Source of the DNA: an uncultured virus (IMG/VR IMGVR_UViG_3300007538_000001)
Lineage: Duplodnaviria > Heunggongvirae > Uroviricota > Caudoviricetes > Crassvirales
Reading direction: 5' to 3' (one strand)
Virus record (IMG/VR): IMGVR_UViG_3300007538_000001
DNA: 64,000 nucleotides
Every line of letters begins with the position of its first letter. The first letter of the stretch is position 1. This document shows, in pieces, positions 2,625 to 39,400 of this stretch. Both the position numbers and the translations under genes were made by a program. The notes beneath the pieces were generated by a model that ran no database searches, was not told the DNA's origin, and was given only the letters and a program-made list of their open reading frames with translations.

Positions 2625-2650
2625 TAACAACTTTTTTAAACAATTAATAA

Positions 2651-12416: not shown

Positions 12417-12422
12417 CAAGAC

Positions 12423-17303: not shown

Positions 17304-17322
17304 CTTTGTATGATAGTCAATA

Positions 17323-17353
17323 TTGACAATTAACGTCTTATTTCATATATTTA
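17323..17353 (+). promoter_or_regulatory. Bacteroidota-type promoter, TTG-N20-TATATTTA
   Basis: TTG at 17323 and TATATTTA at 17346, ending 7 nt before ATG 17361. Confidence 0.6.
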
Positions 17354-17360
17354 CAGTATA

Positions 17361-18077: not shown

Positions 18078-20749
18078 TGTCGGATAAGAAGAATATAAAG
18101 AAAGATTTTGATAGAGAAGCCTTTAAGAAGGCTATTGCTCATGTTGAGTCTAGTGGAGGTAAGTTTCTAGAAAATACAACTAGTTCTGCCGCCGGTAGGT
18201 ATCATTTTTTGTATAGATATATTCAGGATATTCCTTTATTACGCGGCGTAACTAAACGTGAGTTTATTAACAGGCCTGAGCTTCAAGAGCAAGTAATGGA
18301 TATGGCCATAGATGGTACTCTTCCTGGATTTCCTTCGTATAAAGAATACGCAAAGGAACTTCAAGGTAAGTATAGAACAAATTTAGGATTACATGATATT
18401 GCTGCACTAACACATTTCTTAGGTAAGGGTGGTGTTAAAAAGTACCTATCTAATCCTGATGGATTTGTTGTTCCAGGTAAGAATGCAAGCGTATTACAAT
18501 ATATAAATAAATTTAGAAAAGCTTTTGGTCCAGACTCTACTATTTCAGATCAAGATATTGCTAAAAACAGTCCTGCTGAAGCAGGATTAAATGTAAAAGT
18601 TCAAGACAAGACAGCTGTTGCTCCTAAGGTTATTAAAGAAGAAAAGTTTAACTTTAAAGACTCAGGAAGAGATTATATAGACTATCTTAATAATGGAGAG
18701 TTATATGATAAAGCTCCTGTTGAAGCTGAAGGTACTATTAAAGCAGTTGAAAATACAGATGAAGCTCCGACAGAAGCTCAGTCACAAACTCCGACACAAA
18801 CTGGGTCACAAGTAGGTGAAGGCACTGTATTAGCAGAGGATCCTAAAAAAATATTACCAGTAACAGGTGAGCTTGCGGGCAAACCAATGGATGAGCATTT
18901 AGGTTTCTTAAACACTCTTGCAATGGGAGGTTTCTTAAATCAACATGGTGCTCAGGATATTATACCTATTGAGAATGGTGGTACACATGAAGAGAATCCT
19001 TATGGTGGCGTACCTATGGGTATAGGCGCTAATGGCAAAATGAACACTGTTGAAGAAGGTGAAGTTAAATTTGGAGATTACGTTTTTTCAAATAGACTAT
19101 CACTTGGTGGACCAATTACTCAATTAGGTACAAAAGCAAATACATTTGCTGATGGAGGTGATCTAAATAAAGAAAAAGATAAAGAAAAAGATAAAGAAGA
19201 ACTATCTGAATCTGATTTATCAACCAAAATTCTTAGAAACATTTTACCTATTCCTAATAACGCGGCTCAATTAGTCTCAAGTCTTGCAAATAGTGACAGT
19301 AAGTTTAGTACTAAAGATTCAAGCTCGGCAGCTAATAAACACCTGTATAGAAGCGTACTTAATGCTATAAAAAGAACTGGAAAGACCCAAGGTGGCACAG
19401 AATACGAAGATTACAGCAAGGATATAAGCAAAGATCTCAATGGATTGTCAATGAAATCTCCTAATATGATTGCAGGTAGTTTTGTATCTCCAGAACTTGA
19501 GGCTGCTACTACATTTGGAAGAGTCTCATATAAGCAAAATCCTGAAACAGGAGAGATAGAAATATACGATTCTTATGACTTTAGTAAAACTGGTGATAAG
19601 AATAATGTTTATGCAAAAATAAGAAAAAAAGCTGGAGATGTTTCTGATGGAAAATTAGATTCAAAACCAAAACTTATAGGTAAATTTAATCCTAACGAAG
19701 AAAAAGATTTTATTGGTAAAATAGGTGATTTTATGGACAATGTACTAAATCCAATAGATAATTTTAATATACCTTATTCTTCTGTAAAAAAAACTAGTGA
19801 TGCGGTATATAATTCTGGAAAAAACGCGTATGATTATGGAAAAAAAATAATAAATGAAGGTTTAGATTCTTTGTCTAATATGTTCGATAAAGGCGGAGAC
19901 TTGACAGGTCCAACAGACCCAAAGAAAAAAGAATCTAAAAAGAACTCTGATAATCCTGTTACTGATCCGGTGTTTGGACCTGTACTTGAGGATAAACCCT
20001 TAGAATTTATAAAAAATGAATGGCAAACAACTGGATATGGAGGGCTGAAAAAAGTTTCAGAGACATTTGAAGTTCCTGATGTTAGAGAAGACTACATGAT
20101 AGATAATTATGTCACTACACAGAAAAGTGATAAGGTTAACTTTGACTTAGCTATTAATGATAAGAATGCGCTAGAGTTTCTAAACAGATACAATAATCCA
20201 TGGTCAAGACAAAAATTAGCTGAGCAAGCTGGGCTAAGTCCTGAGGATATAGATAATATGATATTAAAAGGACTTAATGTAGACAAAGAAATTGGCGGAG
20301 AAGTTCTTGGATCTAAAGCATCTTATGATGCGTCAAAAAATAAAATTAATATGGGCCCTGAATTTGAAGGTAAAACAGGTGTTGAGACCCATGAAAGAGT
20401 TCATGCTAGTTTATTTGATGCAGCTCAGGGAGAAAACTTAATGAAGATATTAGGCAATCCTTTTCAACAGGAAACTAGAAGCTTCATGAAAAAGCATTCT
20501 CCTGACACTGTTCGTTATCTTAAAAAGCCACATGAGGCTTATGGTAATTTTGTAGAGTTTAGAGAAAAACTAGGATTAAAGCCTGGTGAGCAGATTGATG
20601 AAAAAGAACTAAATAAAAGAATAAAAGCAAAAGGCCTTACAAATGAAAACTTTATTAGAGTTTTCGATGATAGTAAAGTAGTAGAAGCATTAAACACAAT
20701 TGCCAAAGTAGATACAAAACCTACAATGGACGAATATAGAATAGCATAA
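18077..20749 (+). CDS. Multidomain virion cargo protein: lysozyme-like domain, crAss cargo motif and C-terminal HExxH domain
   Basis: AIAHVESSGG...SSAAGRYHF (lysozyme/SLT-like catalytic Glu region); GGTHEENPYGGVPMG...N.VEEGEV (crAss cargo motif); HERVH...PHE.Y (zincin-like). Confidence 0.7.
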   Translation: MSDKKNIKKDFDREAFKKAIAHVESSGGKFLENTTSSAAGRYHFLYRYIQDIPLLRGVTKREFINRPELQEQVMDMAIDGTLPGFPSYKEYAKELQGKYRTNLGLHDIAALTHFLGKGGVKKYLSNPDGFVVPGKNASVLQYINKFRKAFGPDSTISDQDIAKNSPAEAGLNVKVQDKTAVAPKVIKEEKFNFKDSGRDYIDYLNNGELYDKAPVEAEGTIKAVENTDEAPTEAQSQTPTQTGSQVGEGTVLAEDPKKILPVTGELAGKPMDEHLGFLNTLAMGGFLNQHGAQDIIPIENGGTHEENPYGGVPMGIGANGKMNTVEEGEVKFGDYVFSNRLSLGGPITQLGTKANTFADGGDLNKEKDKEKDKEELSESDLSTKILRNILPIPNNAAQLVSSLANSDSKFSTKDSSSAANKHLYRSVLNAIKRTGKTQGGTEYEDYSKDISKDLNGLSMKSPNMIAGSFVSPELEAATTFGRVSYKQNPETGEIEIYDSYDFSKTGDKNNVYAKIRKKAGDVSDGKLDSKPKLIGKFNPNEEKDFIGKIGDFMDNVLNPIDNFNIPYSSVKKTSDAVYNSGKNAYDYGKKIINEGLDSLSNMFDKGGDLTGPTDPKKKESKKNSDNPVTDPVFGPVLEDKPLEFIKNEWQTTGYGGLKKVSETFEVPDVREDYMIDNYVTTQKSDKVNFDLAINDKNALEFLNRYNNPWSRQKLAEQAGLSPEDIDNMILKGLNVDKEIGGEVLGSKASYDASKNKINMGPEFEGKTGVETHERVHASLFDAAQGENLMKILGNPFQQETRSFMKKHSPDTVRYLKKPHEAYGNFVEFREKLGLKPGEQIDEKELNKRIKAKGLTNENFIRVFDDSKVVEALNTIAKVDTKPTMDEYRIA

Positions 20750-22278
20750 TGAAAAAGAAAGAAAGCAATAGCATAATGGAGATGTTCAATTTACCTTCGT
20801 ATACAAAAGGTAAAACTTTTGCTGAAGCTAGTAAACTAATTGCCAAGAAGTTTGAGGGTAGAACAGATAAGGAGTCTGTTGATACTCTTCAAGATCTACA
20901 AGGAAGGTTACAGCAAGCACAAGAGTACATTAAAAAGCAGTCTCAGCCAACTGAGCAACCACAACCACAAGCTCCTGCAATGGGGCCTACTAATGATCAT
21001 TTCCTAGGAGGTATAATGAGTATGTTAGGTGGTGCTGGTGGAGCTGCCGGTGGGGCAGCAAGCGCCGCTGGTGCGGCGGGCGCAGCAGGAGGAGCAGCAG
21101 GTTTATTAGGTGGAGCGTCGTCTGCAATACCTGGACTAGGAGCTCTGTCTAAAGCTCCAGAAGCTATTAATCATTTTAAAGAAGGTAATGCCGCTAAAGG
21201 TATTATGAGTGCAGCAAGTGGAGCTGCTAGTATGATACCTGGTGTAGGCGCAATAGCTTCTCCAATTCTTGATATAGCAGGAAGTTTTATAGGTAATGGG
21301 GCCGCTGAAAAAAAGGCACAAGATATAGCTGTAAATAATACTGCTACTCAGGCTAAAGCATTTAATAATAAATATGCAGGTGGAGGATTTATGGATAATA
21401 TAGATCCTAATGAATTGGTAAGTATGTTGAAAGCACAAGGAAATACATCTCTTACAACACAAGGCCCTATTGGAGGTCCTGTAATGAATTCAGCTGGTAG
21501 AGAAATACAACAAACAGTAAATGAAGGAATCAGTCCTTCTGGAGTAACAGGAATGAGAGGTTTACCAGAAACATCTGTTAATGCTGGTATTGAAGCTCAA
21601 GGATTGGCTCAAGTAGGACAATCTGCTGAAGAGCAATTAAGATCTAGTGCTTTAAAAGGACTAGAACCACTTACTAATTCAGCACAAGGTACAGAACAAG
21701 ATACGGCACAAGAAGGCGGATATGATCCATCTACATTATTAAGATATGCGCCTGCTGTTACTGATGCTTATCAATTAGCTACTCTTGAGAAACCTGATGA
21801 AGTATCAAGAGGTAGACTTGGAAACAAGTATCAATCACAACAAGTAGACGAAAGAAGTTTAGTTCAAGGAGTTCAAGAAGGTATAAATAACAACAGAGAT
21901 GCTATATTAGGTTCATCTGGTGGTTCTGGAGCAGCTGCTCGAGCTAATTTACTAGGATTAAGTCTTCAGGGAACAAAAGCTTTATCTAGCGCTATGCAAT
22001 CAGCTGGTGAAGCTAATAGACAAGATAATAGAACTGGACAACAGTTTAATTTAGGTGTTGATCAAACTAACTTACAGCAATCAAATGCTGAGCAATTAGC
22101 TAATGAGCAAAATCAAGGTGCTTATGATACTCAGAAGAGTCAATTGATTTCTCAATTAGGATCCAACCTTGGCGAAGTAGGAAAAGAACAATTATTCAAA
22201 AAATACCCAGAGCTAATGGGAATGGACTTTGATGCTCTTGGCAAGTATATGAACGGCAAGAAAAAAAAGAAAAAATAA
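20749..22278 (+). CDS. Virion cargo/ejection protein with Gly/Ala-rich membrane-inserting segments
   Basis: TFA.ASK.I segment, a long Gly/Ala hydrophobic tract, LRYAP, SGG..AA.RANLL and a Gln/Asn-rich helical region, as in crAss cargo protein 1. Confidence 0.7.
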   Translation: MKKKESNSIMEMFNLPSYTKGKTFAEASKLIAKKFEGRTDKESVDTLQDLQGRLQQAQEYIKKQSQPTEQPQPQAPAMGPTNDHFLGGIMSMLGGAGGAAGGAASAAGAAGAAGGAAGLLGGASSAIPGLGALSKAPEAINHFKEGNAAKGIMSAASGAASMIPGVGAIASPILDIAGSFIGNGAAEKKAQDIAVNNTATQAKAFNNKYAGGGFMDNIDPNELVSMLKAQGNTSLTTQGPIGGPVMNSAGREIQQTVNEGISPSGVTGMRGLPETSVNAGIEAQGLAQVGQSAEEQLRSSALKGLEPLTNSAQGTEQDTAQEGGYDPSTLLRYAPAVTDAYQLATLEKPDEVSRGRLGNKYQSQQVDERSLVQGVQEGINNNRDAILGSSGGSGAAARANLLGLSLQGTKALSSAMQSAGEANRQDNRTGQQFNLGVDQTNLQQSNAEQLANEQNQGAYDTQKSQLISQLGSNLGEVGKEQLFKKYPELMGMDFDALGKYMNGKKKKKK

Positions 22279-22472: not shown

Positions 22473-24740
22473 ATGAGTAACAGATTTTCACAAACTACAA
22501 CAGCAGGATTTAAGGGTCTTTCCTTAGATGAGATAATGGCTATTCCATTAGCTAAACAAACTCGTCAGGATGCTTCATTGGCGGCAACTGATGAATTACA
22601 AGCGCTAGAAGCTAAAAGACTTGAGAGTGATGCTCCTGTCGTTGATGCAGAATTAGAAAGAATTAGAAAGGAATCAGAACAGATTTCAAAAGACTTAATG
22701 GAAAGAGGTGTAGATAGAAACTTATCTAATAAACTTCGTAGTCTTAGATCATCTCAAAAGAAATCCTTTGGTGCTTCTGGAGTTGTTGGTCAATCTGAAG
22801 CTAACTATAAAGCGGCTCAGTCTTATATTAATAATCTTGCAACTAAGAAAGAACAACAAGCTGGATGGTCACCTCAACAAGCTAAAATATGGGCTACCTC
22901 ACAGGTTAGTAATTTTGGCAGTTCATTTGATGAATTAGGTAATTTTAGACAGTTTCAAGGAGCAGGTATGTCTCAAAAGGTAGAGAGTAATGATTGGATT
23001 AATAAAAATCTAAAACTTATTGCTTCAGATACTAATCAAGAGATGATGAAATATGCTGGTAATTTAGATCAATTCAATGAAGCATATGCCTCTGGTCTAG
23101 TTACAGAGAAAGACTTCAATAAGATTATGTCTTCCTTAACCATTATGGCAGCTAATGATCCGGATTTACAAGCATCTCTAAAACAACAACAATTCTTTGA
23201 CCCCAATGCAGGTGATCCAAAAAATATTGGATCATGGTCTGTAAAATACAGAGAAGATGGTACAAAGACTGACGTATTTACACCTGGTAATGAATTTGGT
23301 AGACAATTGTATGGCGCCGCATTAGGAGTTAAATCAATGGATAAGACATATAAGTTTCATTTTCAAACTGATATTGCTGCTAAAGCTTTATTTGAAGCTG
23401 GCCTTGAAGAAAAAGAAGCTAATGCATTAGTTAGAGCTGCTGATGGTGTATTGAATACTATTACTCCTGATAATATTGATCAGATTAGAGAAAATACAGA
23501 TTTAGCTTTAAAAGAACTTGATAGACAAACTGGTGCTTTAGCTGCTAACTGGACTCCAGAGAGAATAAAGGCTAATCCTGATGCGTATGCTTTAGCTCAA
23601 AAGAGTCTTAATGATTCTAAAGTTAAGTATTTTAATCTCCAGAATAGAATTAAGAGTATAGAAAAAGAAACATTTAAAGAGCTTACTCCTGTTGAACAGG
23701 AAGGAAAAGTTTTATATGATAAATTAAGAGAGGGTATTCCAGGTTATGAACAAGCTAAAAATCAAGATGAGGTTATAACATCTTTAACTGATGCTATTAG
23801 AAAATTACCTGGCGGAAAAGAAGTTGTTGGAGAAAGTGGTACTTTAAGTGAGAGCGGAACAGGAAGTGATGAAATGGAGAATTTCTTAACTTCTAAATAT
23901 CTAGAACTTAAAGGTGAGAAAGTTAACAAAAATTCAAGAGCAAATAGAAGTATATTTAACTGGGTTGGTAGTGAAGACTTAGCTTATGATGATGGTATTG
24001 TAGATAAAATGAAAGATGGAGCAAGGGCCCTTAAAGATAAATCTAAAAAATATCTTGAGCAAAACCCTTATTCTGAATCGTATACTGAATTCGGAGCATT
24101 AAACTCTGGTAAGTATTCTAGTAGAATTGGTGCTATTAACCAAAATCTAACAGATAATTTCCAAGGAGCTGGATACTCAGAAGCTTATACTGGTATGTCA
24201 ATAAACCAATATGTTCAAGAGAATTATCCAACTGACCCTTCTTCAACTGAAGCTAAATATAACTTTGAAATAAGAGTTACGGATGGACTAGATGCCATGG
24301 GTTACCCAATTGAACACTTAGTTATTAAGGACAGAAATGGTTCTGTAATGGAAGTTAAAAGTGTAACAAGAGGTGAGGCTGGTAGAAAAGAACAAAGAGA
24401 AACTGGTATTGAGTTGATGAAATCTACTGATCCTACTCTACAAAAGAAAGGTAAACAAATGCTTGCTAATGATACTATGATGCCTATGATTAAACAAAAT
24501 GGTGGACTTAGAACAGGAGCTGTTGAAGGTCAGTTTACAGGAGAATACAGTAAAGTTGATGTAGATGGAAAGGAACTTCCAATAGTTTGGACTAAAGAAG
24601 AAATAGGTGGTCAAGAAATATGGAGAGTAAACGTTGGAGGATTTAAATCAAGAGAAATACACGGCGAAACAGATATGGCTTCATATCTTGCCGATGAATT
24701 ATTAGCAGAAATAGATAAATATGGTACAGGAGACAATTAA
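22473..24740 (+). CDS. Virion cargo/ejection protein
   Basis: MSNRF N-terminus with an L..DEI...P segment; helical and Cys-free; synteny with crAss cargo genes. Confidence 0.65.
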   Translation: MSNRFSQTTTAGFKGLSLDEIMAIPLAKQTRQDASLAATDELQALEAKRLESDAPVVDAELERIRKESEQISKDLMERGVDRNLSNKLRSLRSSQKKSFGASGVVGQSEANYKAAQSYINNLATKKEQQAGWSPQQAKIWATSQVSNFGSSFDELGNFRQFQGAGMSQKVESNDWINKNLKLIASDTNQEMMKYAGNLDQFNEAYASGLVTEKDFNKIMSSLTIMAANDPDLQASLKQQQFFDPNAGDPKNIGSWSVKYREDGTKTDVFTPGNEFGRQLYGAALGVKSMDKTYKFHFQTDIAAKALFEAGLEEKEANALVRAADGVLNTITPDNIDQIRENTDLALKELDRQTGALAANWTPERIKANPDAYALAQKSLNDSKVKYFNLQNRIKSIEKETFKELTPVEQEGKVLYDKLREGIPGYEQAKNQDEVITSLTDAIRKLPGGKEVVGESGTLSESGTGSDEMENFLTSKYLELKGEKVNKNSRANRSIFNWVGSEDLAYDDGIVDKMKDGARALKDKSKKYLEQNPYSESYTEFGALNSGKYSSRIGAINQNLTDNFQGAGYSEAYTGMSINQYVQENYPTDPSSTEAKYNFEIRVTDGLDAMGYPIEHLVIKDRNGSVMEVKSVTRGEAGRKEQRETGIELMKSTDPTLQKKGKQMLANDTMMPMIKQNGGLRTGAVEGQFTGEYSKVDVDGKELPIVWTKEEIGGQEIWRVNVGGFKSREIHGETDMASYLADELLAEIDKYGTGDN

Positions 24741-27700
24741 TGATCCTTTAGACTTAAGCATTGTAGAGAACGCATCAACAGATGAGACGTTAATGCAAAA
24801 AGATCCTCAAGAGGATACTAAGCCTAAGGCTAAAGCTAAGTTTGCTAGTGTTGACCCTACTGAAGAAGTTGTAGCTGATGACCCTAATAACGGTAAAGCT
24901 AAATTTTCAGGTGGAGGCCCACAGGTTGTTCAAGATAAAATGTATAAAGGATTAGATATCGAAGATTATACAGACTATCTTGGATCTAACATCTTTATGC
25001 CTACTGGTGGCGTTGACGCTTTAAATAAGCAACGCGCTATGAATCAATCCGGTTGGGAGCAAGCAGGTAATATGCTTGGTCAAGCTGTTGTTGGTGAAAT
25101 TGTAGGTGGTACTATTGAAGGTTTAGGTTACATCTTAGATGTTGGTAGCGCACTGGATTATATGACTGGTAATGAAAAGGACTGGGGTAACTTTATGACT
25201 GAAGCTGGTAAAGGATTAAGAACATGGAGTCAAGATGCAATGGCTATACATACTGTTAATCCAGGTAAATTTGATCCGGGAGATTCAGGATGGTGGTTTA
25301 GTAACGGTGTTAGTGTAGCTTCTACATTAAGCATGCTTATCCCTTCTATGGCTGCAACCAAAGCATTAGGCTTCTTGGGTAAGGGAGCAAGTAAGCTTGG
25401 TGGTAAATTCTCTAAGATACTTGATGTTGCAGGAAACATGGGTAAACAAGCTACATGGATGACAGAAGGTATTTCTCAAGCAATAGTATCTAGACATATA
25501 GAAAATTCTATGGAAGCTAGTGGCACATTCGAAAGTGCAAAAGCTGATTACTTAACAAGAACAAATAAAGAAACAGGATTACCATTTACTGAAGAAGAAG
25601 CAACTAAATTAGCTTCTGAGGCCGCTGCTTCTAACTACAATAAAGGCTGGGCCATGTTACTTCAAGATATACCCCAGTATTTAGCATTAGGTAAAATCTT
25701 CAATCCTCACACAGGTAGAATGGAGAATGCTTTATCTAAGGCTTCTCAAAAAGGTAAACAATTAAAATTAAAACCATGGCAACAAAAAGTTGGTAGTGGA
25801 ATTGGAACATTCTTGTCTGAAGGTTTTGAAGAATCTTACCAATATTATATTGCAGAACAAGGTAAAGCACTTGCTGATCTAAATGCTGGATTAATCACAA
25901 GAGATAAGTATAATGAGATCATGTCTGACGCCATTGGCTCTGACGAGATGATGACTTCTGCATTCTTTGGTGGATTAGGTGGTAATTTATTTCAAATGGC
26001 AGGTAAGGGCTTAAATGAGCTCGGAAAAGGAAAGAAAAGAAGAGAATTCGAAAGCAATTACGAGGAAACTTATAGGTCTACACTTAATGATCGTGCTAAG
26101 AATTTCATGTCTATGCAACAAAGGCTAGCTGATGCTGACAACAACGATAATGTTGAGGCCAGAGAGATGGTATTAGATGAAATGATGTTGATGATGACTA
26201 CTGATGCACTGCACCGTGGTAAATTTGATCAACATATTGAATCTCTTCAAGGTATAGCTAACATGACTAAAGAAGAAGCTAAAGCTTTAGAACAACAAGG
26301 TGGTGGTGAATTCAATTTAGAATTAGCTAAGAAGAGTATTCCTGAAATAATCAAAAAGTCTGAAGAGATGAGATTAGATTATTTGAAGTTCTCTAACAAA
26401 TACGAAGGTAATATTGCGGCTAAAATGGCCCAAAACAATTACAGAACTAAAAGATTTGTTGAAAACTCAAAGAAGATGGATGAAAAAATCCAATCTACTA
26501 CTTATTCTGTTCCGAATATTAATGCTATGTCTACAACTCAACTTAATAAAGTTGAAGGAGTAATTAAGTTAAGAGCTTTAGCTGAAATGAATCAAGCATT
26601 TAAAGATCAACTTAAATCAGGTAAAGTAAGTGAGTTAAGAAAACCACATATTGAAAAAATCATAAAAGAAAATGAGGCTAGAATATCTAAGCTAACTAAA
26701 CAATATGATGCTGAAAATAAAGATGATCCAAGAGATGCTGACAAAAAGAGAGAAGATTCTAGGATAGCGCAAGGTTTCACAAAAGATATCACTGATGAGC
26801 TTGTTCAAGCTAATATGGTTAAGGAGCGTAATAACGCAGAGATAATGCTTAATCAATTAGAGAATGATGCTATTCGTAGTGAAAGTTATAGAAATGGCCT
26901 TAAAAAAGAAGCTTTAAAAGAAAAGGTTAACTCTAAAATAGAGAATGAAGAGCAAGGTGAGGCTATTAAGAAGGAAATTGAAGATGCTCCATTCTTAACT
27001 AAGGATGAAAAAGCTGCTGAACTTGCTACTGTTAATGAGAATATAGAGGAATTAGCTAATGAGGCTGCTGTTGCTCAAGAATATAAGAATGATGAGGCTA
27101 GAGAAGCTGAGAAGTTAGCTGCTGTTAATGAAGCTAAGAAAGATACTAAGACTATAACCAATGCTAACAATGCTAAGGTTAATGATAACGTAGAAGATGA
27201 GTTCGCTGAGGAGCAAACTACTGTCTCTAAGATTACTAAAAGCAAAGAGAAGTCACAAGATAGAGCTATTAATACTAAAGCGTATAAGAACATAAAGGTT
27301 CCTATGTATGCTAATCTTAATGGTCCTGGTTGGAAAGACTGGGTGTTTAATGGTAAGGACAAAACTGGAATCAAGGATGGCAAACCAGTCATTTTAGATT
27401 TTGTAATAGGTGATCCTGGTGGAAAATATTCGCAATTAGCCCAACAGGCAATTAATATTTACAACAGAGCTAAGGCTAATCCTAAAAACAAGCTTACATC
27501 TGAGGAAAAAGATATTTTATTTAATCATCTTCCTATAAAGATTCAACTTACTGAAGAGATTTGGTCATATATACCTGCATTCTCTCCATCAAATACATTC
27601 TTTAAAACTAATGAATTGCCAAAAAGAGAGGCTATCATTAGACAGATGTTTAAAGGAAACACTAAAACTCAAGTTACTTATCAATTTGGAGGAAACTTAC

Positions 27701-30414
27701 ATGTTGAAGAAACTGAAGATAACACTGTACCTGAAAACAATATAATGGATTTCCCATTTATTGATGGTAATATGGGTAAAGTAGACTTAATGGTCACTAA
27801 TGAAAATGGTACTTTAGTTAAGGCTAGTGATAAAACAGATCATCCTGACTTTGAAGGATTACAAATAGATGTATTAAGAACACAAGATGACAAAGGAAAT
27901 CCAGTGCCTTACAAAGGTGGTGTATTTTTAAATGTTCCTAAGGCTAATGGAGATCCATTTCCTTTAAAACTTAACCTAAGACGTCCAACAACAGTAGAAG
28001 CTACATTTGTTGCAGACTTACTTATAGCTGTTATTACCAAGAAGCTTGGTAAAGAGGCTAGATTAAGTGAACATCCTGAGTTATTTAAAAGATTTAAAGA
28101 AGATCATCCTTCTGAATTTGCTGTATTAGGTAAAGATGCTAAAACAATGGATGTTGCTAAATTATTTGTACATATGACAGCTGAAACAGCAGGTAAAGAA
28201 ACTCATTTACACTTAACAGGTGAATGGATTCATTATGGTACAGATATGAAAGCTGCTGTTACTCCTAAAAATGTAGTTGACAATAGAGATGCTCTTATTG
28301 GATTTATACAAGACTTCAAGAGACGTCAACTTAATCTTAAACAATGGAATGATGCTGTAATAGGTCCTAAGTATAGAGAAATGATGACTAATGGTGTAAT
28401 GTCTACTGACGCTGTTGTTGGTACTGAGAAGCCATTATTTAATGAGAATAAAACTCTTGGCCGTGACAATGGATTACCTCCATTTAAGTTTGATATAGGA
28501 TTTGCTGTGCCTGAAGATACTCCCGAAGTTACTGAAGTGAGCCCTAAGGAAGCAACTAAGACTAACAAAGATATTGATTCTAGACAAGCAGCTTCTGATA
28601 ATGCTGGTGTTGTTGATGAAAGGGAAAAAGGCTTTGCCGGCGTATTCTTTGATAAAAATAGAAAAAGAATTCCAGTATACGGTAAAAATGCTGACATGGT
28701 TCGTAAGCTAATAAAGGAAAGATATGATGCTGAAAGATTATCTCAACCTGCTCAAAAAGCAGCTACTGTTATTAAGGAAGTTCCTACTCAAGAAATAACA
28801 ATAGATCCATTAAGTAAATCAATAGATGCACAAAAAGCTGAAATAGAAAGAAGAAGACAAGAAGAGTTAAAAGATACAGGGGCTACAGACAACAATCTAA
28901 CAAATGGAAGTAAATGGAGAAAAGTCGAAGTCAAAGAAAATGGCAAAATCATCCCATTTAATAACTTTACTGTTAAACTAGATGAAGCTATTAAGCTAGC
29001 ATCTGTAATGGATATAAATAAAGATTTTGGTAAAGATGATAAATTTAAAGGGTATGGGTGGAAAGCATACATTGCATTAGGGAAAGAGTTAGATAAGTTA
29101 GGTTATAGTTTTATAGCTTCTAAAAATTTATCAGATGGTGCTATTAAAACTTGGGATAAGTTAGTTGAAAAAGGATATGCTTATAAAAGAGGAGATAGAA
29201 GTTATAAATTTCAAAATAAAGAAAATTCTTCTAATAAATACAATAAATATTTTGATACATTAAAAGAAGCTGCTTTTAACCAATTAAATAGTATGTTTGG
29301 TAATATACCGTACAGTTCTATTGAAGATTATAAATCTGTTATTGATGTTGAAAAAGACAATAATAAAATGGCAGAAGGTTTAAAAAGAACCCTTTCTGCT
29401 TATGATGCTAAAGATTATAATATTATAGAGGAATATGGATATAAAAATATAATAGACGATATATCAAATAATGACCTTTCATTTGAAAAAAGTAACAAAA
29501 ATGATAATCTAAATTTAGAAGTAGAGTTGATTGAAGATAAAAGATTTGATAAAATCAACGCTAAATATGATGCTGAATTAGCTGCTTTAGAAAATAATGA
29601 AAAAGCTAATATAGAAAAAAGAAGACAAGAAGAGAGGATAGTACACACAGATATAGATAAAAAGGGGAGAAAACATACTTATTTTACAAAAACTACAGAA
29701 AAAGACGGGTTAACTAAAACAAAGTTTACTTTCAATAGAAGTGATAAAGATTCTACACAAAGAAACACTGCATCTGTACCTACAGATATTGCTTTAGGGG
29801 ATAAATATGTAATACCAAAAGAAACAAAAAATGCTGATGGAAGTATGTCTGACCAAATTCCTGAAGACACTATTGTACATTCTGTTTTAGAAATAAGAGA
29901 AGGAGATGGTAAAATAGGAGCTACTGTAATGTTTCAAGGTAAAAATGACCCCACTATAAGGTGGAAAGGAGATATTGTTTTAGAAATCAATGCTGAATAT
30001 GATGCAGAAATAGCTGCTTTAGGTGATACTACTGTTGAAGATTCTTCAACTGATCCTGTTTCTAATGGTATTTGGAAAAAGTTTATTGACAAAGGCGATG
30101 TATCTAAAATTCAATTAAATAAGATTGCTAAAAAAATTGCTTCAAATGATTTGCTTTCTTCAAGAGAAAACGCTATCTTTACAGGCAAGACTGCTGAGAT
30201 AAATGAAATTCTTGTAGATTTACGCGCTTCAGAAGAAGTTAAAGCTAGAAATAAAATGGCACAAAGAGAATTAAAAGCTAATAAGAACGTAGAAGTAGAG
30301 TCTTCTGAAGAAGCAAAAGATGCTGAGAAGATTGATAAAAAACAAAACACAAAAGAAATAGATCCTAACGTAATTAAAACTGAAGAACAGGGAGACTGGG
30401 ATTGTATAATATAA
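24721..30414 (+). CDS. Large virion cargo (polyvalent) protein with inserted domain cassettes
   Basis: 1897 aa. RA.NQS.WE, hydrophobic Gly/Ala helices and SEG.EE..QY occur in the N-terminal part. Repeat-bracketed variable domains occur near the C-terminus. It lies immediately upstream of the vRNAP. Confidence 0.75.
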   Translation: MVQETINDPLDLSIVENASTDETLMQKDPQEDTKPKAKAKFASVDPTEEVVADDPNNGKAKFSGGGPQVVQDKMYKGLDIEDYTDYLGSNIFMPTGGVDALNKQRAMNQSGWEQAGNMLGQAVVGEIVGGTIEGLGYILDVGSALDYMTGNEKDWGNFMTEAGKGLRTWSQDAMAIHTVNPGKFDPGDSGWWFSNGVSVASTLSMLIPSMAATKALGFLGKGASKLGGKFSKILDVAGNMGKQATWMTEGISQAIVSRHIENSMEASGTFESAKADYLTRTNKETGLPFTEEEATKLASEAAASNYNKGWAMLLQDIPQYLALGKIFNPHTGRMENALSKASQKGKQLKLKPWQQKVGSGIGTFLSEGFEESYQYYIAEQGKALADLNAGLITRDKYNEIMSDAIGSDEMMTSAFFGGLGGNLFQMAGKGLNELGKGKKRREFESNYEETYRSTLNDRAKNFMSMQQRLADADNNDNVEAREMVLDEMMLMMTTDALHRGKFDQHIESLQGIANMTKEEAKALEQQGGGEFNLELAKKSIPEIIKKSEEMRLDYLKFSNKYEGNIAAKMAQNNYRTKRFVENSKKMDEKIQSTTYSVPNINAMSTTQLNKVEGVIKLRALAEMNQAFKDQLKSGKVSELRKPHIEKIIKENEARISKLTKQYDAENKDDPRDADKKREDSRIAQGFTKDITDELVQANMVKERNNAEIMLNQLENDAIRSESYRNGLKKEALKEKVNSKIENEEQGEAIKKEIEDAPFLTKDEKAAELATVNENIEELANEAAVAQEYKNDEAREAEKLAAVNEAKKDTKTITNANNAKVNDNVEDEFAEEQTTVSKITKSKEKSQDRAINTKAYKNIKVPMYANLNGPGWKDWVFNGKDKTGIKDGKPVILDFVIGDPGGKYSQLAQQAINIYNRAKANPKNKLTSEEKDILFNHLPIKIQLTEEIWSYIPAFSPSNTFFKTNELPKREAIIRQMFKGNTKTQVTYQFGGNLHVEETEDNTVPENNIMDFPFIDGNMGKVDLMVTNENGTLVKASDKTDHPDFEGLQIDVLRTQDDKGNPVPYKGGVFLNVPKANGDPFPLKLNLRRPTTVEATFVADLLIAVITKKLGKEARLSEHPELFKRFKEDHPSEFAVLGKDAKTMDVAKLFVHMTAETAGKETHLHLTGEWIHYGTDMKAAVTPKNVVDNRDALIGFIQDFKRRQLNLKQWNDAVIGPKYREMMTNGVMSTDAVVGTEKPLFNENKTLGRDNGLPPFKFDIGFAVPEDTPEVTEVSPKEATKTNKDIDSRQAASDNAGVVDEREKGFAGVFFDKNRKRIPVYGKNADMVRKLIKERYDAERLSQPAQKAATVIKEVPTQEITIDPLSKSIDAQKAEIERRRQEELKDTGATDNNLTNGSKWRKVEVKENGKIIPFNNFTVKLDEAIKLASVMDINKDFGKDDKFKGYGWKAYIALGKELDKLGYSFIASKNLSDGAIKTWDKLVEKGYAYKRGDRSYKFQNKENSSNKYNKYFDTLKEAAFNQLNSMFGNIPYSSIEDYKSVIDVEKDNNKMAEGLKRTLSAYDAKDYNIIEEYGYKNIIDDISNNDLSFEKSNKNDNLNLEVELIEDKRFDKINAKYDAELAALENNEKANIEKRRQEERIVHTDIDKKGRKHTYFTKTTEKDGLTKTKFTFNRSDKDSTQRNTASVPTDIALGDKYVIPKETKNADGSMSDQIPEDTIVHSVLEIREGDGKIGATVMFQGKNDPTIRWKGDIVLEINAEYDAEIAALGDTTVEDSSTDPVSNGIWKKFIDKGDVSKIQLNKIAKKIASNDLLSSRENAIFTGKTAEINEILVDLRASEEVKARNKMAQRELKANKNVEVESSEEAKDAEKIDKKQNTKEIDPNVIKTEEQGDWDCII
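28834..30022 (+). repeat. Two pairs of imperfect direct repeats (A...B-A...B) bracketing in-frame domain cassettes
   Basis: Repeat A: 28834-28866 vs 29602-29634 (30/33 nt identical; KAEIERRRQEE/KANIEKRRQEE). Repeat B: 29551-29590 vs 29983-30022 (35/40 nt identical; KINAKYDAELAAL/EINAEYDAEIAAL). Confidence 0.9.
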
Positions 30415-30439
30415 TAAATTTTAAAACGCTATAAAGCAA

Positions 30440-33400
30440 ATGGGAAAGAATTCGAATTGTATAGGCGCCATGAAGTTTGAGGAAAAGCTAGTTACCATTT
30501 TGGGAACTCAAGAACTAGCTAATGCAGAAGCACGAAGAATTGCTTCTGATTCATTCAAACAAGTATTCGGCGATTGGGAAAACAATAAAGACGCTAAATG
30601 GACTGACAAACAAGGTGCATTAAGGCAAGATGATAATGGTTATCCTAGATTATTTAAATCTGGTAACCAATTCTACTATAAACTTAAGAATGGCAAGAAA
30701 GACTTCTTAAACAAGATTAAGTTTCCAGAAATAGATCCAGACGACGTATTTGAAATCACTAATCAACTTAGATATGAGCTATTCTCAACTAAGGAGGGAT
30801 TTGATTTTAATAACATTGAGAACATAAAAGGTCTCAAGATAGCTGAGTCTATTCAATCTAGCATTGATGCTTATAGAGCTGAAAATGTAGGAGATCCTGA
30901 TGCACAAATGCGTGCAGATCTTATTGAAAAATATAAGGAAGACTTTGTTATTGAGGTAAGAACTCAAATTGAAGACATGGGTCTTACATCAAGTAAGCGT
31001 ATTAAAGCAGGTGCTAGAAAGGATCAAATTGTTGACTTAACTGATGAGAATGGAAATCCAGAAGGGGAAATGGCTGAAGAAGACAAATCCACTGGAATGA
31101 ATTTCGCCGAAAGCTTTACAAAGAATTCTAAAGACACTGCGTCTGTAAATGTAAAGTTATTATTATCCACTGTATTAGATACTAAAAGAGAGCTTAGGAA
31201 AAATCCTGACGGAACTCCGTATGTAAATGAGAACGGTAAAAATGAAATGGTTATTTCTACTGTTCCTGGTAGGTTTTTAGGTAAGCCACAATTTGTTGAA
31301 TTTGATGACGTATGGACTACCTTGGAGCCAATGCTAGCTGACTTAGTTAACTTTAACCTAGGAGGAGATGTTCAGGATGTATTTGACTTAATGGTTGAGA
31401 AGCTTGAGGGCTTAAAACTAGTTAAGCCATGGACAGAAGGATTAGTAGACAGACTAAAAGAATTAAATACTTCAGAGAAGATTGGTGAAAGAAATAAAAT
31501 TACAGAATTTTTCCAAGCTTTCTCCAAAGCTCAACTTGATTATTATGTAACTGAAGTTAACGGTCGTAATATAAAAGTAATCAATGCTTCTTCTACAAAC
31601 TCGAGATCTAGTAAGCTTAAAGCTGAATGGGGCCGTAATTTTAGAAAGAAATTCTTAACCAGCAAGGGTAAGATGAATAAAGCTGTCGATGTTGAACAAA
31701 TATCTGACATGATTACTGAGTCAAAGAAAAAGTTTATAAGCCAAGTAGGCACAAGAGGAACAACAGCCTCTAAAATTAAAAGTATCAGTGAGAATCTTCC
31801 TATTCTAATGGGAGCAATGAATGCGCTTGGTATCAACGTTAACAACCTTGATATGCGTAACTTTATTCTTCAGGTTAGTGATCCGGAAAAAAGATATGGT
31901 GAAGTAAAAGCTTTATATGAAGGTATGGAAAGAACCATGGCTATCATAAAAGATGATAAAGCTCCATTTGTTGTAGCTGGTGAATTTAAAAATCCATTTG
32001 ATGATCAATTGGTATTAGGTAGATTAGCTACTGCAAGAGGATTGAGCGCTATTCAATTATCTGAGAATACAATTGTTGGTAATGAAGGTAAGACATATTG
32101 GACCTATTCTTCATTAAGTTATTTACATAACAAGCTTAATGCCTGGAAACAGCAAGCTGGTGTAGATGATACTATGGATATACAAGCTTTAGCTAGCTTA
32201 ACTTATAACAAGAATTCTAGATGGTTGAAATACTTATTAGCTGCTGATATTGTTAATGACAGTGAGCGCGAAGCTAAATCATTAGAAAGAATTCAGGATG
32301 TTCAAATAGGCTTGTCGAGCTCTATGAAATCCAAAAATAAGAATGACGGTGTTGATAATACTAAGATAACAATTGCTGATGCTATTAATGATAGTATGGT
32401 AAAAATTCTTGGTAAGAAAGCTTCTGCTCAAAAGTCATTATTTCCTACTATTGTTCCGGCTGATAAATCCCGTAAAATGGATCTTGCAGGTTTCGAAATG
32501 TTTGAAACAGGTATCGTATATACTAATGGTAAAGGAACAGAGGTTGATGATGCTACATCTGATATCTTTATAGATTACTTTGAAGATGAATTCAACAGGA
32601 TGGCTGAGGCAGCTGATGAAATAGATAATCTTCCTGATTCAGAAAAGATAGAGCACTATCATACTAAGAGTATGAATGCGCTTCAGTCTCAATTGTTTCC
32701 AGAATTCTCACCTGCTGAAGCTTCTAAGGAAGTTAAAGCTATCTTATATGATAAGAACCGTCCTAAAAAATCTACAATTTCTGGATTATCTAAAACTCAG
32801 AAAGAGGCTTTAAGACCATTTGTTGTACAAGCTATCAAGGATAGAATGAAAGAAACTCTTCAGGAGTTAAGAAAAAATAAAATTATAGAAGTTGATCCAA
32901 AAGAAAAGGGTGGATTAAAGGCCCTTACTATTGATAAATCTTTAATGGCTTCATATGAGTCTCAAAGTTCACCAGTGCATACAATGGTTGGTGATTATGT
33001 TGTTAATGGACTTATTTCTACTATTGAATATACCAAGTTATTTTCTGGTGATCCTGCTTATTATAAAAATCAAAGTGATTTGATTAAAAGGATTCCTGCT
33101 ACCTATACTGATGGATTGCAATTAAGACTTAGTGAGAATGATCACAAGTATTTTAATCAAGCAACAGTTAATGGTGTTGAGGTTGCTTCTAAGTATATGA
33201 AAGAGATAAGAGATTCTCTTACTGACAAGAAATTAATAGAAGCTTATAAAAATGTAAATACAACTGATGCTCAAGCATGGATAACTCCTCATAGATGGAA
33301 GTTTCTTAAAGAGAGATTAGGCCAATGGGGTGCTCAGCATGAGAAAGTATTCAAGAAAATGATGGATGGTAAAGAGTTAGAGCCTAAGGAACTTAAACTT

Positions 33401-36400
33401 GCTGCTCAACCATTGAAAGGTGTGTATTTCGAAGTTAATGACGGACGTCCTGTATATTTAAAATATTCACAGGCCGTACTAGTTCCTAGTTTAGTTAAGA
33501 ACACTCCGATGCAAGCTCTATATAATAAGATGACAATAGATCCTGCAACAGGTGAGCCATTTGAAAATAAAAAAGATGAACTTCATGAAGTTATTACTCG
33601 TGACGGTGTAAAAGTTGGAGCAAAAGGAATAACAGATATTCACTCTAAAGACGGTGAGTTATTGGCAGAGTTTGAATTAAATTCAACTCCTTTAATTAAT
33701 TCAGGTTGGAAATTACAACAAGATCTGCCTACAAAGCTTATTCATGATACTCTTACTGGATCTCAAATCCAAAAGAACATATTAGCTGGTATTGACTTAT
33801 CTTCTAAATTAGCTAACTATGAACTTAATGGTGAACCTAAAACTGGTAGAGAAATCATGCAAATGATTCATGATACTATTGGATCATTAGTTGGAGAAGG
33901 AAGAGAATCACTTGTAAATAAGTTCGGAATAGGAGAAGATAATAAGATTACTAATATGACGGCAGTCTATGAAGCTCTTATTGACGAATTTAAATCAAGA
34001 GGTGGAGATGAAAATATTATCTCAGCCTTAGAAAAAGAGATGTCATTTGATGCTATTCCTCAATTAGCAGGAAGAGTACAAAGTATCTTTATGTCTATCT
34101 TTAATAAAGAACTTATTAAAGTTAAGACTAATGGAGGTTCTTTTATTCAAGTATCACCATTTGGACTTGAGTCTGTTCAGGAAATTGTAAAAGATGACTC
34201 CGGTGAAGGTCCAACTAAAGTTCTTAGATCCGGTATCAAAATAGTATCTGATAACTATGATCCAAAAGGATTAAAGCCACCACGTATTGATAAAAAGACT
34301 GGAAAAGTTTTACCTGGTCAAGCAATGTTACCATATAGTGCAATAAGAAGCGCTATTGATAAGTATAACAAACAATTTAAAAATGAGAATGATCCACAGA
34401 GAATAAATCCATGGAACATGTCAGCTGCTAAGCTTAAGGAAATTTTAGATCCTAGTGCACTACAAATGGTTGCTTATAGAATACCTAACCAAGGAATGTC
34501 TTCTAATGATCCTTTAGAGATTGTTGGTATACTTCCTCCTGAGTTAGGAGATAGTATTGTTGCTTACGATGCTGTACCTGGTAAGACTGGTAGTGACTTT
34601 GATATAGATAAGATGTATGTCATGACGCATCACCTTGAAGTGAGAGATGGAAAAATCCAAAAGGTACCAAGTAACATGGACTCCAAAAAAGGTAAGCAAA
34701 ATATGCTAGTAGATTTATATACTAGTGTTCTTACTAGTCCTCATACTTACGATCAAATGATGACATCTATTGATGCTGGTTTCTTAAAGAATGATATCGT
34801 TGACTTATTTCCTCCAAAGGAATTAGGAAGCTTACAGTTTATGAGCCCTATGCAACAAATCAAGACTAAGTTTGAATACTTGTCTGGTAAGTTCGGTGTG
34901 GCCCAGACTGCAAACCAGTTAGTGGACCATGCAAGCAACCAAAGTTTAAACATTAGACTTAACGGATACTTAGGTATTGGACATAAAGACTCTAAAGGCA
35001 ATACAAAGTTTGATAACATTACAGACACAGATGGTAAGAATAGCATTAGTGATGTACTATCTGCATTCTTAAACGCGTATGTTGATATTGCAAAGGATCC
35101 TTATATTTCTCGTGGTAACCACAATGTTAATACAGCAAGTATTACATTTATGTTGTTACGAGCAGGAGCCCCTGTATCATGGGTTAACAGGTTTGTAGGT
35201 CAACCTATTCTTAAAGATTTAGTTGATGTTATAAACATGTCTGATGGCAAAACTGCAAGAAGATTAACTTTTGGAGACTCAGGTAAGACTGTAACTCCAA
35301 TTGAGTATATTAGATTGCAATACGGTGTTAAGAAAGGTGATGCTACTGAAACTGATGTTGCTGCTTTAAGCCCATCTAAGATGGAGACTGCAATTAAAAA
35401 AGAAGGCGCCCTTACTACTGAAGAGAAAATTGAACAAGGTAAGATCCTGGATGTATTTGAATTCCTTCAAGATCATGCACGAGCTTTCAATGCCAGTGTA
35501 TCTGCTGCTAAGGCTGATACCAAAGGTAATGGAGGTGGAGTTCTACCTTTACATATTGCTAAAAATAAAGTGAATGCCGTTCTTAATGCTAAGAAAATAT
35601 TAGGATATGCTTCTAAAGGGTTTACTGATGCACATGCTACCTCTACTATGATGGGTCATTACTATCATAACGGAGTGTTATGGGTTAGTAAAGTTTTAGA
35701 ATCTAGTGATTTATTCTTAGCTGGTAAGCAAGAAGTATTACATGCTTTTGACGGCGTATCTGAAGCTTTAGGAAAAGGATTATTAACTGATCCTGAATTA
35801 GGAAGAGTGTTAGAAAATTCTTTTAGATCTTACTCTATGTCTGGATTATCTGTCTTTAAAGATAACAACTCAGATCATGACTTTTTATTTAAAGTTTTAC
35901 CAGAACAAATTTCTGCACTTAAAGAAACTAATGATAATTTCTTAATCCAAGAACTTAGAATAGAGACTTCAGGTGGATACGAATTCTTAGGGATAGATTC
36001 TAGAACAGCTACAAAAAGTTTTAACAATAGAATATATAGAGCGTGGTCTCAACTACTTAATTCTTCTGATCCGGCCGAAAGAAAGCTTGGAGTGGATTTA
36101 ATAAGATACGCGTACTCACAATCTGGATTTAATAATAATTTAAATCAATTCTTTTCACACATCCCACATAATTTCTTTGCAGAACAAGGTATTGCATTTG
36201 AGATTGATGAGATGTTTAGAACTATTGACAATATGGTTGCAGGTGAAGACTTTAAAGATCAAATGCTAAGACATCAATGGGATAATAAAACATTGGGTTC
36301 TAAATTAGTTCCTGAGCTTAGAGCTGATAAAATAAAAGGTTTCGGAGGTTTATTTAGTCTTGGAACCGGATTTATCAGTGACGAAGAAAAATATTCTGTT

Positions 36401-39400
36401 GCAGTTGATGTAGATTTTATGGGTAATAAAACATTCCCTAAATTTACAAAAGTAATGCTTAATCAAAAAGAAGTATATGATAAAGGTGCTATTCCAAATT
36501 ATGGTTTATTCATATTAAGAGGAGAAGTTAATGGAAATCCTGTATATACTCGTACACATAAGCTTGGACACAAATCTAGTAAAGGTAGTATATTCGAATA
36601 CAATGAAAAAGAAGCTCCTACTAAGTCTGTTGTTGAAGGAAATAATGTTCCTACTAAGATTAAGGGTGAGATTAGAGATATAATGAAACAACTTAGATCT
36701 GATCCTGGATTTATTGAGGAAAAAGATGCAATTACTATTCAAGAAAGTACTCCAAGTGAGAATGTTCGAGAAGTATCTAAGAAAATCATTAGTGATATTG
36801 ATATAGCTTCATTTAAGAAAAGAATTAAAGATGGACAATTGCCTAGTGAACATTTTACTAATGACAGTGTATTTGCTGAAATCAAAAATTCTAAGACTGA
36901 AGGAAAAGGTAAAATGCCTCAGGATCACATGTGGATTAAAAATTCAAATGATAGATACGATATGATTGGTCAACAATCTGGTGAAATTATTGTTGCCAAT
37001 GTTGACCTTGAAACTGGATTACAATATACAGAGGTAAATATAGATAAAGCAGATAAAGCTCAAGAAGAAAGAATATTACCTAGTGATGACTATCAATTTG
37101 AAGAACTTCAAGTGTTTAATGCTAAGATAGCTCACTTACAAAGTAAAATGAACGTAGATGTTATTATGGATAGCACAGTTCCTACATCAAGAGTATTAGG
37201 AGCTTCAGATCCTAGAACAATTGCTGCTGGTAAACCTGTTATCTTAATTAATCCTAAGGCTATCTTTAAAACTACTGCTATTCACGAATTTGCGCATATC
37301 TTTATAGATGCATTTCCTGGTGGCTTAAAGAACAAAAGATTGCAGAAGGCATTACAAGAGCTTAAGAGAACAGGATTGTACGATGAAGTAAAAGAAGGTT
37401 ATCCTGAGCTGAGTGATGAGATGTTTGAGAAAGAACTTTTGGCCACTGCAATTGGTAGAGAAGGTGTTGACATTTGGGATAGCAATGAAAAAGCTGGAAT
37501 GTGGACAGCATTTAAAAATTGGTTCTTTGACTTCTTAAGAAGAGCTTTTGGATTAAATCAAAGCGAAGTAACAAGCTTAACAAAAGAGTTATTAAACAAT
37601 ACTGTTAAGACTGATTTGCTAGCAAACTTATCGGAACAGGATCAACAAGAGAAGAATTTCGGACAACAAGAAGAAAAAGATGAAGAAGTTGTTGAACTTG
37701 AAAACACTTATAATCAAATTGTTTCTTCTATTGCTAACTTGAGACAAGCTATTGAGCCTCGTACTAAAAAAGAACTTAAGGTTGAAGAATCTAAAAAGGC
37801 TGGATTAGAGAAAGGTGAGAAAACTAAATATCAAGAAGTTAAAGCTTTAGATGAGAAATTAACTGATGAGATGAGTAGGCTTAATGAAACAGCTAACTCA
37901 AGAGCAATGCTTAGATATGTTGCATTTTCACAGAAGAGTGTTAATGAATACAAATCACTTGTTAGTAGGTTAACTGAAAGAGGTAAATTAACTCCTGAGG
38001 ACATCAAGAATATTAAATTCTTTACATCTGTATTCACTATGATTCCTGATGTTAAGCAATTGATGTTAGAGCAATATGAAAAAGGATATCTTAAAGATAA
38101 CAATGGTCAAAAGAAAAAGAGAATGGCCGTACTTGATAAGATTATAGCTGATTATGATACTTTAAATCAAGAGATGTTAGGTGTTTCAAGAAGAATATAC
38201 GCGCAAACAATGGTAGAGCATTCTAATGAGCACGTAACTGCTTGGAGAAAGAAATTTGAGAAGCAATATGCTGATCTTGAGTCTAGAAATGCTACTCCTG
38301 ATGAGAACATGTATGTCTGGGTTAACGCTAAGATGACAGCAAATAAAGATAAGATTGAAAGTGAAGCGCTTAAGTTCTATGAGAACCAGGCTAAGAAATC
38401 TTTATCAGATATTCATGCATCCACCGGGTGGTTGGTTTCTGAAAAGAACATAGCTAATGCTGAAATTCAAACAGTTTCTAGAATGATAGATGCTGCTGAT
38501 TTTGAAGTTGACAGATGGGTCCAAGCTCAAGCAAAAGAAGTAGAAGATTCTTATAAAGAGTTCTCTAAAGACTATGCTAGCTCACTCGGAACAGAAGGAA
38601 GATATAAGAAATTTGTTGATCAAACTGATGAAGGATCTTATTTGATATCAGAATACAAAGCAGATTTCTTAGCTAAATACTATGAGGCTAATTCGTGGAT
38701 GAATAAAAATGTATACGAGGAAAAGTTTGCAGGAATAGAAGTTACGAAAGATGGTAAATATACATATAATGGAGAAACTAAAGAACTTCTTTTACCTCGT
38801 AATGGATTAAAAGTCGAAGGTACTCATGTGTTTTATACCGAAGCTGGAATAACCCACTCAATGACACTTCAAGAGGCTATTGGAAAGAGTGAGCGTGCTT
38901 ACTGGGTTGAAGAGAATACTGATACTCAAAAGACATCATATGGATTGGATCTTAAGCCTAAGAAATCAATATGGGCTAATCCTGCTTATGAAGAATTATC
39001 TGTTAAAGACAGGGAGCACTTGAAATCTATGAGAAAAATGATATTAGACGCGCATGTCTTAACTGAAGGTAAGCAAACTCTAATTGAAAAAGCAGGTGTT
39101 GCTGATTTTTATAGATTACCAGGCGTAACAAGATCTAGTAAGGCTAGAGCTCTTGCAGGTGATTTAAAATCTCTTGTTAGTGACAGTGTAACTGACATGT
39201 TCAAGAAGAAAGAAGATGAATTTGAATTAGAAGCTGAAGGAACTAAAGCTGCTGACAAAGGAAAGAATTCTATTCGCAGAATGGCTGACCTTACTAATAA
39301 GCAGAAGTATGATGTTCCTATTCCGTTCAGAGCTAAGCTTAGCAAAGCAGATCAAAGTCTAGATATTCACACTATCTTACTTATGAATTTGAAAGAAGCT

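Follow-up and report, generated by a model that had tools for sequence, protein, structure and literature searches.

How podoviruses pass megadaltons of protein, an RNA polymerase included, in order through a narrow tail is an open question for the crassviruses, the phages most abundant in the human gut. The question takes a specific form in an uncultured member of the Crassvirales (IMG/VR record IMGVR_UViG_3300007538_000001), of which we analyzed a stretch of 64,000 nucleotides, referred to here as the window. Its two largest cargo proteins, one of 1897 amino acids (aa) and a virion RNA polymerase (RNAP) of 3516 aa, have a single cysteine each, and both residues stand at the ends by which the two proteins face each other. 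The most economical reading, and in our opinion a probable one, is that the two cysteines join the proteins tail to head by a disulfide, which would replace in trans the peptide bond that gene fission removed.

Cysteine depletion in the cargo proteins of the window

An earlier note on this DNA had counted only two cysteines in the 7,567 aa encoded by five cargo open reading frames (ORFs), and our counts agree with it: the 890-, 509- and 755-aa proteins have none, the 1897-aa protein has one at residue 1895, the third from its C-terminus, and the polymerase has one at residue 7 (MGKNSNC..). The neighbouring virion proteins, as the note also said, contain cysteine normally; the muzzle protein (1356 aa), for example, has 12. 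Taking the other 35 window ORFs of at least 150 aa as background (117 cysteines in 11,278 aa, or 1.04%), 78.5 cysteines were expected in the cargo versus 2 observed (binomial P(≤2) = 1.7e-31). The probability that the two residues, placed at random within their own proteins, would both fall so near to the facing ends is ~3e-6; the facing-end pattern is not due to chance.

Depletion of this kind is known from the Schitoviridae (N4, DEV), whose giant ejected proteins, a virion RNA polymerase among them, are likewise almost without cysteine. Passages of PMC11445570 bear out the statement of the earlier note that the N4 virion RNAP is Cys-free, both N4 gp50 and DEV gp71 lacking the residue; they give the cysteine content of gp71 homologues in Schitoviridae as 0.00075% versus 0.865% for the proteome, explain it by passage through the periplasm, and ascribe the rare cysteines to unconserved regions or sequence errors. 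The window cargo displays the cysteine suppression of ejected phage proteins. Nevertheless, Schitoviridae have no retained terminal cysteine, whereas in crassviruses no residue of the termini is better conserved than the retained cysteines.

Identity of the cargo modules

We named the 1897-aa type of protein module A, the polymerase core module B and the polymerase-associated part module C. Residues ~1-2100 of the window polymerase match gp66 of Cellulophaga phage phi14:2, and residues ~2200-3516 match stand-alone proteins of the gp65 type. When profile A3 was compared with the PDB it matched 6vr4_A (phi14:2 gp66) with E=0 over profile positions 2-2017; a model of polymerase residues 1-450 gave the same entry as its sole PDB match in Foldseek (8.4e-14), and tblastn of the first 1000 aa against gp66 showed 29% identity with 99% covered. 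The catalytic DFDxD motif (D1386 F1387 D1388 I1389 D1390) is invariant in 30 sequences. Judged by these comparisons, the window polymerase is a Crassvirales virion RNA polymerase of the phi14:2 gp66 type.

Homologues of window A and B+C are gp67, gp66 and gp65 in phi14:2 and gp47, gp50 and gp49 in PhicrAss001, all of which follow an identical cysteine rule, described below. Mass spectrometry places the proteins of these two phages in the virion, according to annotation notes for phi14:2 (10.1101/2020.03.07.982082 being the preprint on this phage) and to passages of PMC10172136 for PhicrAss001, and their ejection is generally assumed; for the window proteins both packaging and ejection are predicted from these homologues. 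That crAss cargo is thought to be ejected unfolded, as the earlier note had it, agrees with a passage of PMC10172136 in which the cargo of PhicrAss001 is proposed to be partly unfolded in extrusion.

The modules are cut into genes in different ways. The window has A plus a fused B+C, and differs in this from phi14:2 and PhicrAss001; relatives have A, B and C separate, or A+B plus C, and a passage of the phi14:2 preprint reports a form with all three in a single polyprotein in some crAss-like phages (10.1101/2020.03.07.982082). Such fused forms hold identical modules in one chain, supporting A, B and C as a unit. In the same preprint the polyprotein is proposed to be "likely cleaved" into parts; the cysteine rule suggests the opposite need, namely that split forms be re-joined.

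Conservation of the terminal cysteines in homologues

In a survey of database proteins, a cysteine at residue 3, 4 or 7 was present in 41 of 42 polymerase homologues and missing only from P0001, which is the window product itself, started at an inner Met. No cysteine beyond the N-terminal one was present in the B+C-fused polymerases of at least 3380 aa (7/7), and the shorter polymerases (2068-3005 aa, no module C) carried one 0-15 residues from the C-terminus in 33 of 34 cases; one extra internal cysteine was found in 7/42. Homologues of A had exactly one cysteine, 1-5 residues from the end, in 11 of 13 proteins, and the two weakest matches had none. Stand-alone C homologues (1285-1391 aa) had exactly one, at residue 3-5, in 42/43; the remaining protein (P0056) begins at an internal Met and corresponds, at 99% identity, to an inner part of the window fused polymerase.

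The Cys7 column is invariant in alignments A3 (30 sequences) and A5 (26 sequences), and Met1 and Cys7 are the only invariant residues in the first 450 of the 26 polymerases of A5. The Cys1895 column is nearly invariant in alignment A4 (an alignment label, not the phage A4 discussed below). The terminal cysteines are conserved across 17-100% identity.

The named phages follow the same arrangement. In phi14:2, gp67 (1797 aa) ends in its sole cysteine, gp66 (2180 aa) carries two cysteines, at residues 3 and 2179, and residue 3 is the only cysteine of gp65 (1421 aa). In PhicrAss001, the one cysteine of gp47 (2341 aa) lies 2 residues from the C-terminus, gp50 has Cys5 and Cys2404 (8 from the end) in addition to an internal Cys1334, and gp49 has Cys5 only; the rule is kept in this phage with gp47 non-adjacent to gp50/gp49 and on the opposite strand. 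Three Suoliviridae (cr50_1, cr56_1 and cr4_1) have A+B as one gene (4,461-4,774 aa) with no N-terminal cysteine, a cysteine 1-3 residues from the end and 2-7 further internal ones, and in them the next gene has a cysteine at residue 3 or 6.

Cysteine pairs at gene boundaries and their loss on fusion

The B profile, together with the pattern GSDFDID, gave 475 relatives, of which 80 IMG/VR loci were retrieved; together with the window and five named phages the set came to 86 loci, which form 56 clusters at 70% identity. We excluded L042, L058, L082 and L085, in which module B is interrupted, and tallied the remaining 82; a cysteine was called terminal when it lay within 10 residues of an end. 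It had been suggested in the earlier note that a C-terminal cysteine in one cargo gene should co-occur with an N-terminal one in the next, and this is what we found: cysteines were present on both sides of 27/28 A/B boundaries and of 74/75 B/C boundaries. In the B/C exception (L086) the C gene is broken, with a first piece starting MYKC. The outer ends of the chain had no terminal cysteine (A N-terminus 0/26, A+B N-terminus 0/29, C C-terminus 0/68, B+C C-terminus 0/1), nor had the C-terminus of the cargo gene upstream of A (0/42). Internal cysteines per 100 aa amounted to 0.004 in A, 0.007 in B and 0.029 in C of the relatives.

The second expectation of that note, that the pair should vanish when the genes are fused, holds in seven B+C-fused proteins and in six A+B-fused lineages. 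The latter are the A+B-fused clusters with a C-terminal cysteine only, 6 of 16 (L027, L031, L033, L043, L045 and L065); L014 has normal split genes and both cysteines. A search for the old A/B junction inside the fused proteins, using a hidden Markov model of the first 110 residues of B, gave a best E of 0.058, which is unusable. On a FastTree of the B core with 58 rows, the fusion state changed at least six times, four for A/B and two for B/C, and in independent pairs the terminal cysteine moved in the predicted direction in 4/4 (A/B) and ~2/2 (B/C) cases; pooled, these 6/6 give p ~0.03 by our own arithmetic. Locus L043 has an extra protein of 1167 aa (14423-17926) between A+B and C, with cysteines at residue 4 and 1 from the end, which by its sequence looks like an added link in the chain.

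Start of the polymerase gene and codon context

The earlier note had pointed out that a polymerase started at the downstream Met (MKFEE) would lose the cysteine. The gene call for the window genome (P0001, 3506 aa) does start there, whereas those for relatives use the upstream Met. P0006 and P0007, with 69% and 60% identity to the window polymerase in alignment A3, have Lys in place of the inner Met and keep the upstream MG..S.C, and because of this we take the upstream Met as the start and the MKFEE start as unlikely. Gene callers can lose a short N-terminal extension bearing the cysteine, as for the window genome, a point of relevance to annotation.

The terminal cysteines are encoded by TGT (158) and TGC (15), and their placement varies from residue 2 to 7 at the N-terminus and from 0 to 8 residues from the end at the C-terminus. 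The use of both codons at variable positions indicates selection on the residue and not on a DNA motif. In the window both cysteine codons lie within an identical 8-mer, ATTGTATA (30399-30410 and 30454-30465), encoding D-C-I and N-C-I; this probably represents a small peptide context in common rather than a DNA signal. A Pro follows the N-terminal cysteine in 26/88 dereplicated N-termini, and CPN (Cys-Pro-Asn) is frequent at the N-termini of module C, e.g. L016 12780, L056 13879 and L027 13837.

Structure models of the two termini

For the C-terminal 399 residues of module A, the model (mean predicted local distance difference test score, pLDDT, of 60) has a beta domain, a helical domain and a long terminal helix (residues 326-373 of 399), followed by a low-confidence tail that bears the cysteine. 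In the polymerase model, which covers the N-terminal 450 residues (mean pLDDT 71.5), residues 1-5 are disordered and Cys7 begins a helix (residues 6-21). Accessible termini are compatible with both models and proved by neither.

A solved disulfide with the same signature

A disulfide of this disposition is described in passages of a cryo-EM study of cyanopodophage A4 (Anabaena phage A-4L), where Cys1715 of gp27 is bonded to Cys5 of gp26 (PNAS 2025, PMC12002296). In the A-4L record these are the sole cysteines of the ejection proteins gp27 (1717 aa) and gp26 (1114 aa), and a neighbouring ejection protein, gp29, is Cys-free. The likeness to the window consists of a sole cysteine near the C-terminus of the upstream protein and another near the N-terminus of the next product. 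The word stem "cystein" is absent from the passages of PMC12002296, which do not mention that the rest of the A4 proteins is Cys-free. There are differences as well: in A4 a single link lies within an ordered, five-fold core that has no polymerase, whereas in the window the link would be to the virion RNA polymerase, and crassvirus relatives, unlike A4, would have two or three links in series that track gene fission and fusion. BLASTP of A4 gp27 and gp26 against A, B and C gave no match at E<0.01; the model of the module A C-terminus gave no PDB fold match at E<=0.001, and A4 proteins were not among the fold matches of this model or of the polymerase N-terminus. By analogy, the window pair would work like gp27-gp26 of A4 without belonging to the same family.

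Proposed tail-to-head linkage

From the pattern described above we infer that the bond forms, at what stage it does so and what it is for. Cys1895 of A and Cys7 of the polymerase would form a disulfide inside the particle, joining A and B+C tail to head into one chain of ~5,400 residues, topologically equivalent to a single polypeptide. No other cross-link would be possible, because the rest of both proteins is kept Cys-free, in which they match the ejected proteins of N4-like phages; the joint would be nearly linear, because the link lies within a few residues of the ends. The pieces would thereby be kept together, in a fixed order and at a 1:1 ratio, through packaging and a partly unfolded extrusion, after which the reducing host cytoplasm could separate them. 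The sequence data support the interpretation put forward in the earlier note, an inter-protein disulfide between the C-terminus of the large cargo protein and the N-terminus of the RNAP, which withstood both of that note's refuting conditions that concern sequence, co-variation in homologues and the start codon. If true, a conserved covalent tether would be a simple physical answer to how cargo order and stoichiometry are kept, and would suggest a redox trigger for release.

More tentatively, we consider it possible, short of probable, that this applies to the Crassvirales as a whole: a cysteine pair at each cut between the A, B and C genes would re-join a polymerase thread of at least 0.6 MDa, which would be injected whole and whose reduction in the host cytoplasm would free, and perhaps activate, the polymerase, A4-like cyanopodophages having arrived at such a link independently.

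A literature search found no published account of a terminal-cysteine rule for Crassvirales. Neither "cystein" nor "disulfide" occurs in the phi14:2 preprint (Drobysheva et al., 10.1101/2020.03.07.982082). In favour of the linkage, virions of PhicrAss001 do have disulfides between subunits: the seven "disulfide" passages of PMC10172136 (Bayfield et al.) all concern the tail and portal vertex, and the passages on mass spectrometry report reduced and non-reduced samples without comment on the cargo proteins.

Several points weigh against the tail-to-head linkage. The gut crassviruses have anaerobic hosts, in which thiols would not necessarily be oxidized. Relatives with three genes have four junction cysteines (one in A, two in B, one in C), whose correct pairing would need docking. 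The surveys contain exceptions, as in the A/B boundary of L034 the upstream cysteine is 31 residues from the end, and P0038 is a shorter polymerase without a C-terminal cysteine. The chain does not explain the 2-7 internal cysteines in 10/16 A+B-fused clusters, nor the cysteine at about residue 1334-1373 of B in 6/42 proteins and in PhicrAss001 gp50. Finally, the sign tests on fusion are weak singly (p 0.125 for A/B and 0.5 for B/C), and model confidence is low for both tails.

Among the alternatives, the one that survives best, which we still regard as unlikely, is that the disulfide statically braces a folded core inside the particle, as described for the pre-ejectosome of phage A4, stabilising a docked interface and fixing stoichiometry, and is not part of a thread pulled out in order. 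In the passages on A4 (PMC12002296) the C-terminal helix of gp27 occupies a cleft in gp26, a contact that the disulfide is said to stabilise, and the predicted C-terminus of window A likewise has a long terminal helix ahead of its cysteine-bearing tail. Nevertheless, the pair can be dispensed with precisely where a peptide bond takes its place, as would be expected of a tether more than of a specific folded interface; moreover, the residues around the cysteines are poorly conserved, and the PhicrAss001 maps, as described in passages of PMC10172136, have no ordered core for these proteins.

It is a good deal less likely that the cysteines have other partners, that is, that they form homodimers (A-A, B-B) or anchor the proteins to cysteines of the capsid, portal or tail. 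A single free cysteine per window protein could equally give homodimers, and the structural proteins of PhicrAss001 are disulfide-rich according to passages of PMC10172136; however, an anchoring or dimerizing role predicts neither that the cysteines stand solely at partner-facing ends, as the empty outer ends indicate, nor that both are lost on fusion, and the numbers in PhicrAss001 gp47, gp50 and gp49 (1, 2 plus one internal, and 1) are the count for a linear chain.

We give still slightly less weight to the cysteines acting without a disulfide, through a metal ion bridge, thiol chemistry or a recognition step in packaging. Sequence evidence cannot separate a disulfide from another cysteine-dependent contact, and both the cytoplasm and the gut are reducing; against this, one cysteine per side makes two metal ligands and the alignments show no conserved His, Cys or Asp nearby, while in the one solved case of this signature, phage A4, the contact is a disulfide (passages of PMC12002296).

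Chance, an annotation artefact or a DNA-level signal (a junction motif, a wrong start) we consider extremely improbable, since the dropped Cys7 of P0001 and the 8-mer around both window codons, which could suggest them, are outweighed by a pattern that 56 clusters keep at identities as low as ~17%, with TGT and TGC both in use and the spacing variable, by PhicrAss001 keeping the rule with its A and B genes on opposite strands, and by P0006 and P0007 without the inner Met, so that the boundary census, the codon and spacing variation and these two proteins together refute the DNA-motif and wrong-start explanations.

A split intein, with protein trans-splicing, was also considered for the gene junctions and rejected: cysteines 0-8 residues from the C-terminus and at residues 2-7 leave no room for intein halves, and the lack of a Pfam match in A or the polymerase disfavours intein (Hint) half-domains as well.

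Features of the window and additional observations

A Pfam scan of the window revealed a crassvirus structural block, all on the same strand and upstream of the polymerase, with domains of the crassvirus major capsid, ring proteins 1-4, auxiliary capsid, muzzle and cargo-protein-1. Features of the cargo block are collected in Table 1. In searches against databases, megablast of the region gave no match among phage records, PHROGs left the five cargo ORFs without a family, Pfam had no match for module A or the polymerase, and a PDB sequence search with module A found nothing.

Table 1. Position of the cargo-block features in the window, and carriers of the internal B-core cysteine in relatives (positions in the last row are those of the loci named).
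Feature	Position	Strand	Remarks
Crassvirus muzzle protein (context)	13233..17303	+	Pfam PF25731/PF25729; PHROG 28748; 1356 aa
Cargo protein 1 homologue, 890 aa	18077..20749	+	Pfam PF25725 crAss_CARG1, E 9e-23
Cargo-block ORF, 509 aa, 0 Cys	20749..22278	+	no family match
Cargo-block ORF, 755 aa, 0 Cys	22473..24740	+	C-terminus facing module A without Cys
Module A, 1897-aa virion protein (predicted)	24721..30414	+	homologue of phi14:2 gp67 and PhicrAss001 gp47
Cys1895 codon TGT of module A	30403..30405	+	..WDCII*, third residue from the C-terminus
Modules B+C fused, 3516-aa virion RNA polymerase (predicted)	30440..40990	+	sole Cys at residue 7
Cys7 codon TGT of the polymerase	30458..30460	+	MGKNSNC..
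Downstream in-frame ATG of the polymerase (MKFEE)	30470..30472	+	unlikely start
Internal B-core Cys carriers			P0012, P0013, P0015, P0016, P0019, P0021; gp50 (L005 12485-19723, minus); L010 7998-14504

The 890-aa homologue of cargo protein 1 is outside the proposed Cys-linked chain. PhicrAss001 cargo protein 1, gp45 (L006 26987-29515), has a close cysteine pair at residues 390/398, and a cargo-block protein of phi14:2 (g069, L001 23984-25246) has one at 369/378; the window homologue has no such pair. Given the first ATG as start, the 1897-aa ORF and the end of the 755-aa ORF have 20 nt in common (window 24721-24740). Two polymerase-core proteins, P0009 (3005 aa) and P0017 (2696 aa), display helicase-type Pfam domains (PF13604, PF13538, PF13245) ahead of their C-terminal cysteine.

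Many gut relatives (within the gut loci L052-L089, cr56_1 and cr4_1) keep these genes open only with TAG read as a sense codon. The A+B-fused proteins of the gut relatives have 2-7 internal cysteines, more than the marine ones. Regarding the breaks inside B, no cysteine pair was found at those of L042, L082 and L085. The breaks in L082 and L085 are frameshift-like, that of L085 lying at an A-run, and the polymerase gene of L042 is interrupted by ~940 nt (11654-12597) inside the GSDFDxDK motif (..TGSD / FDVDKMY..), probably by a group I intron.

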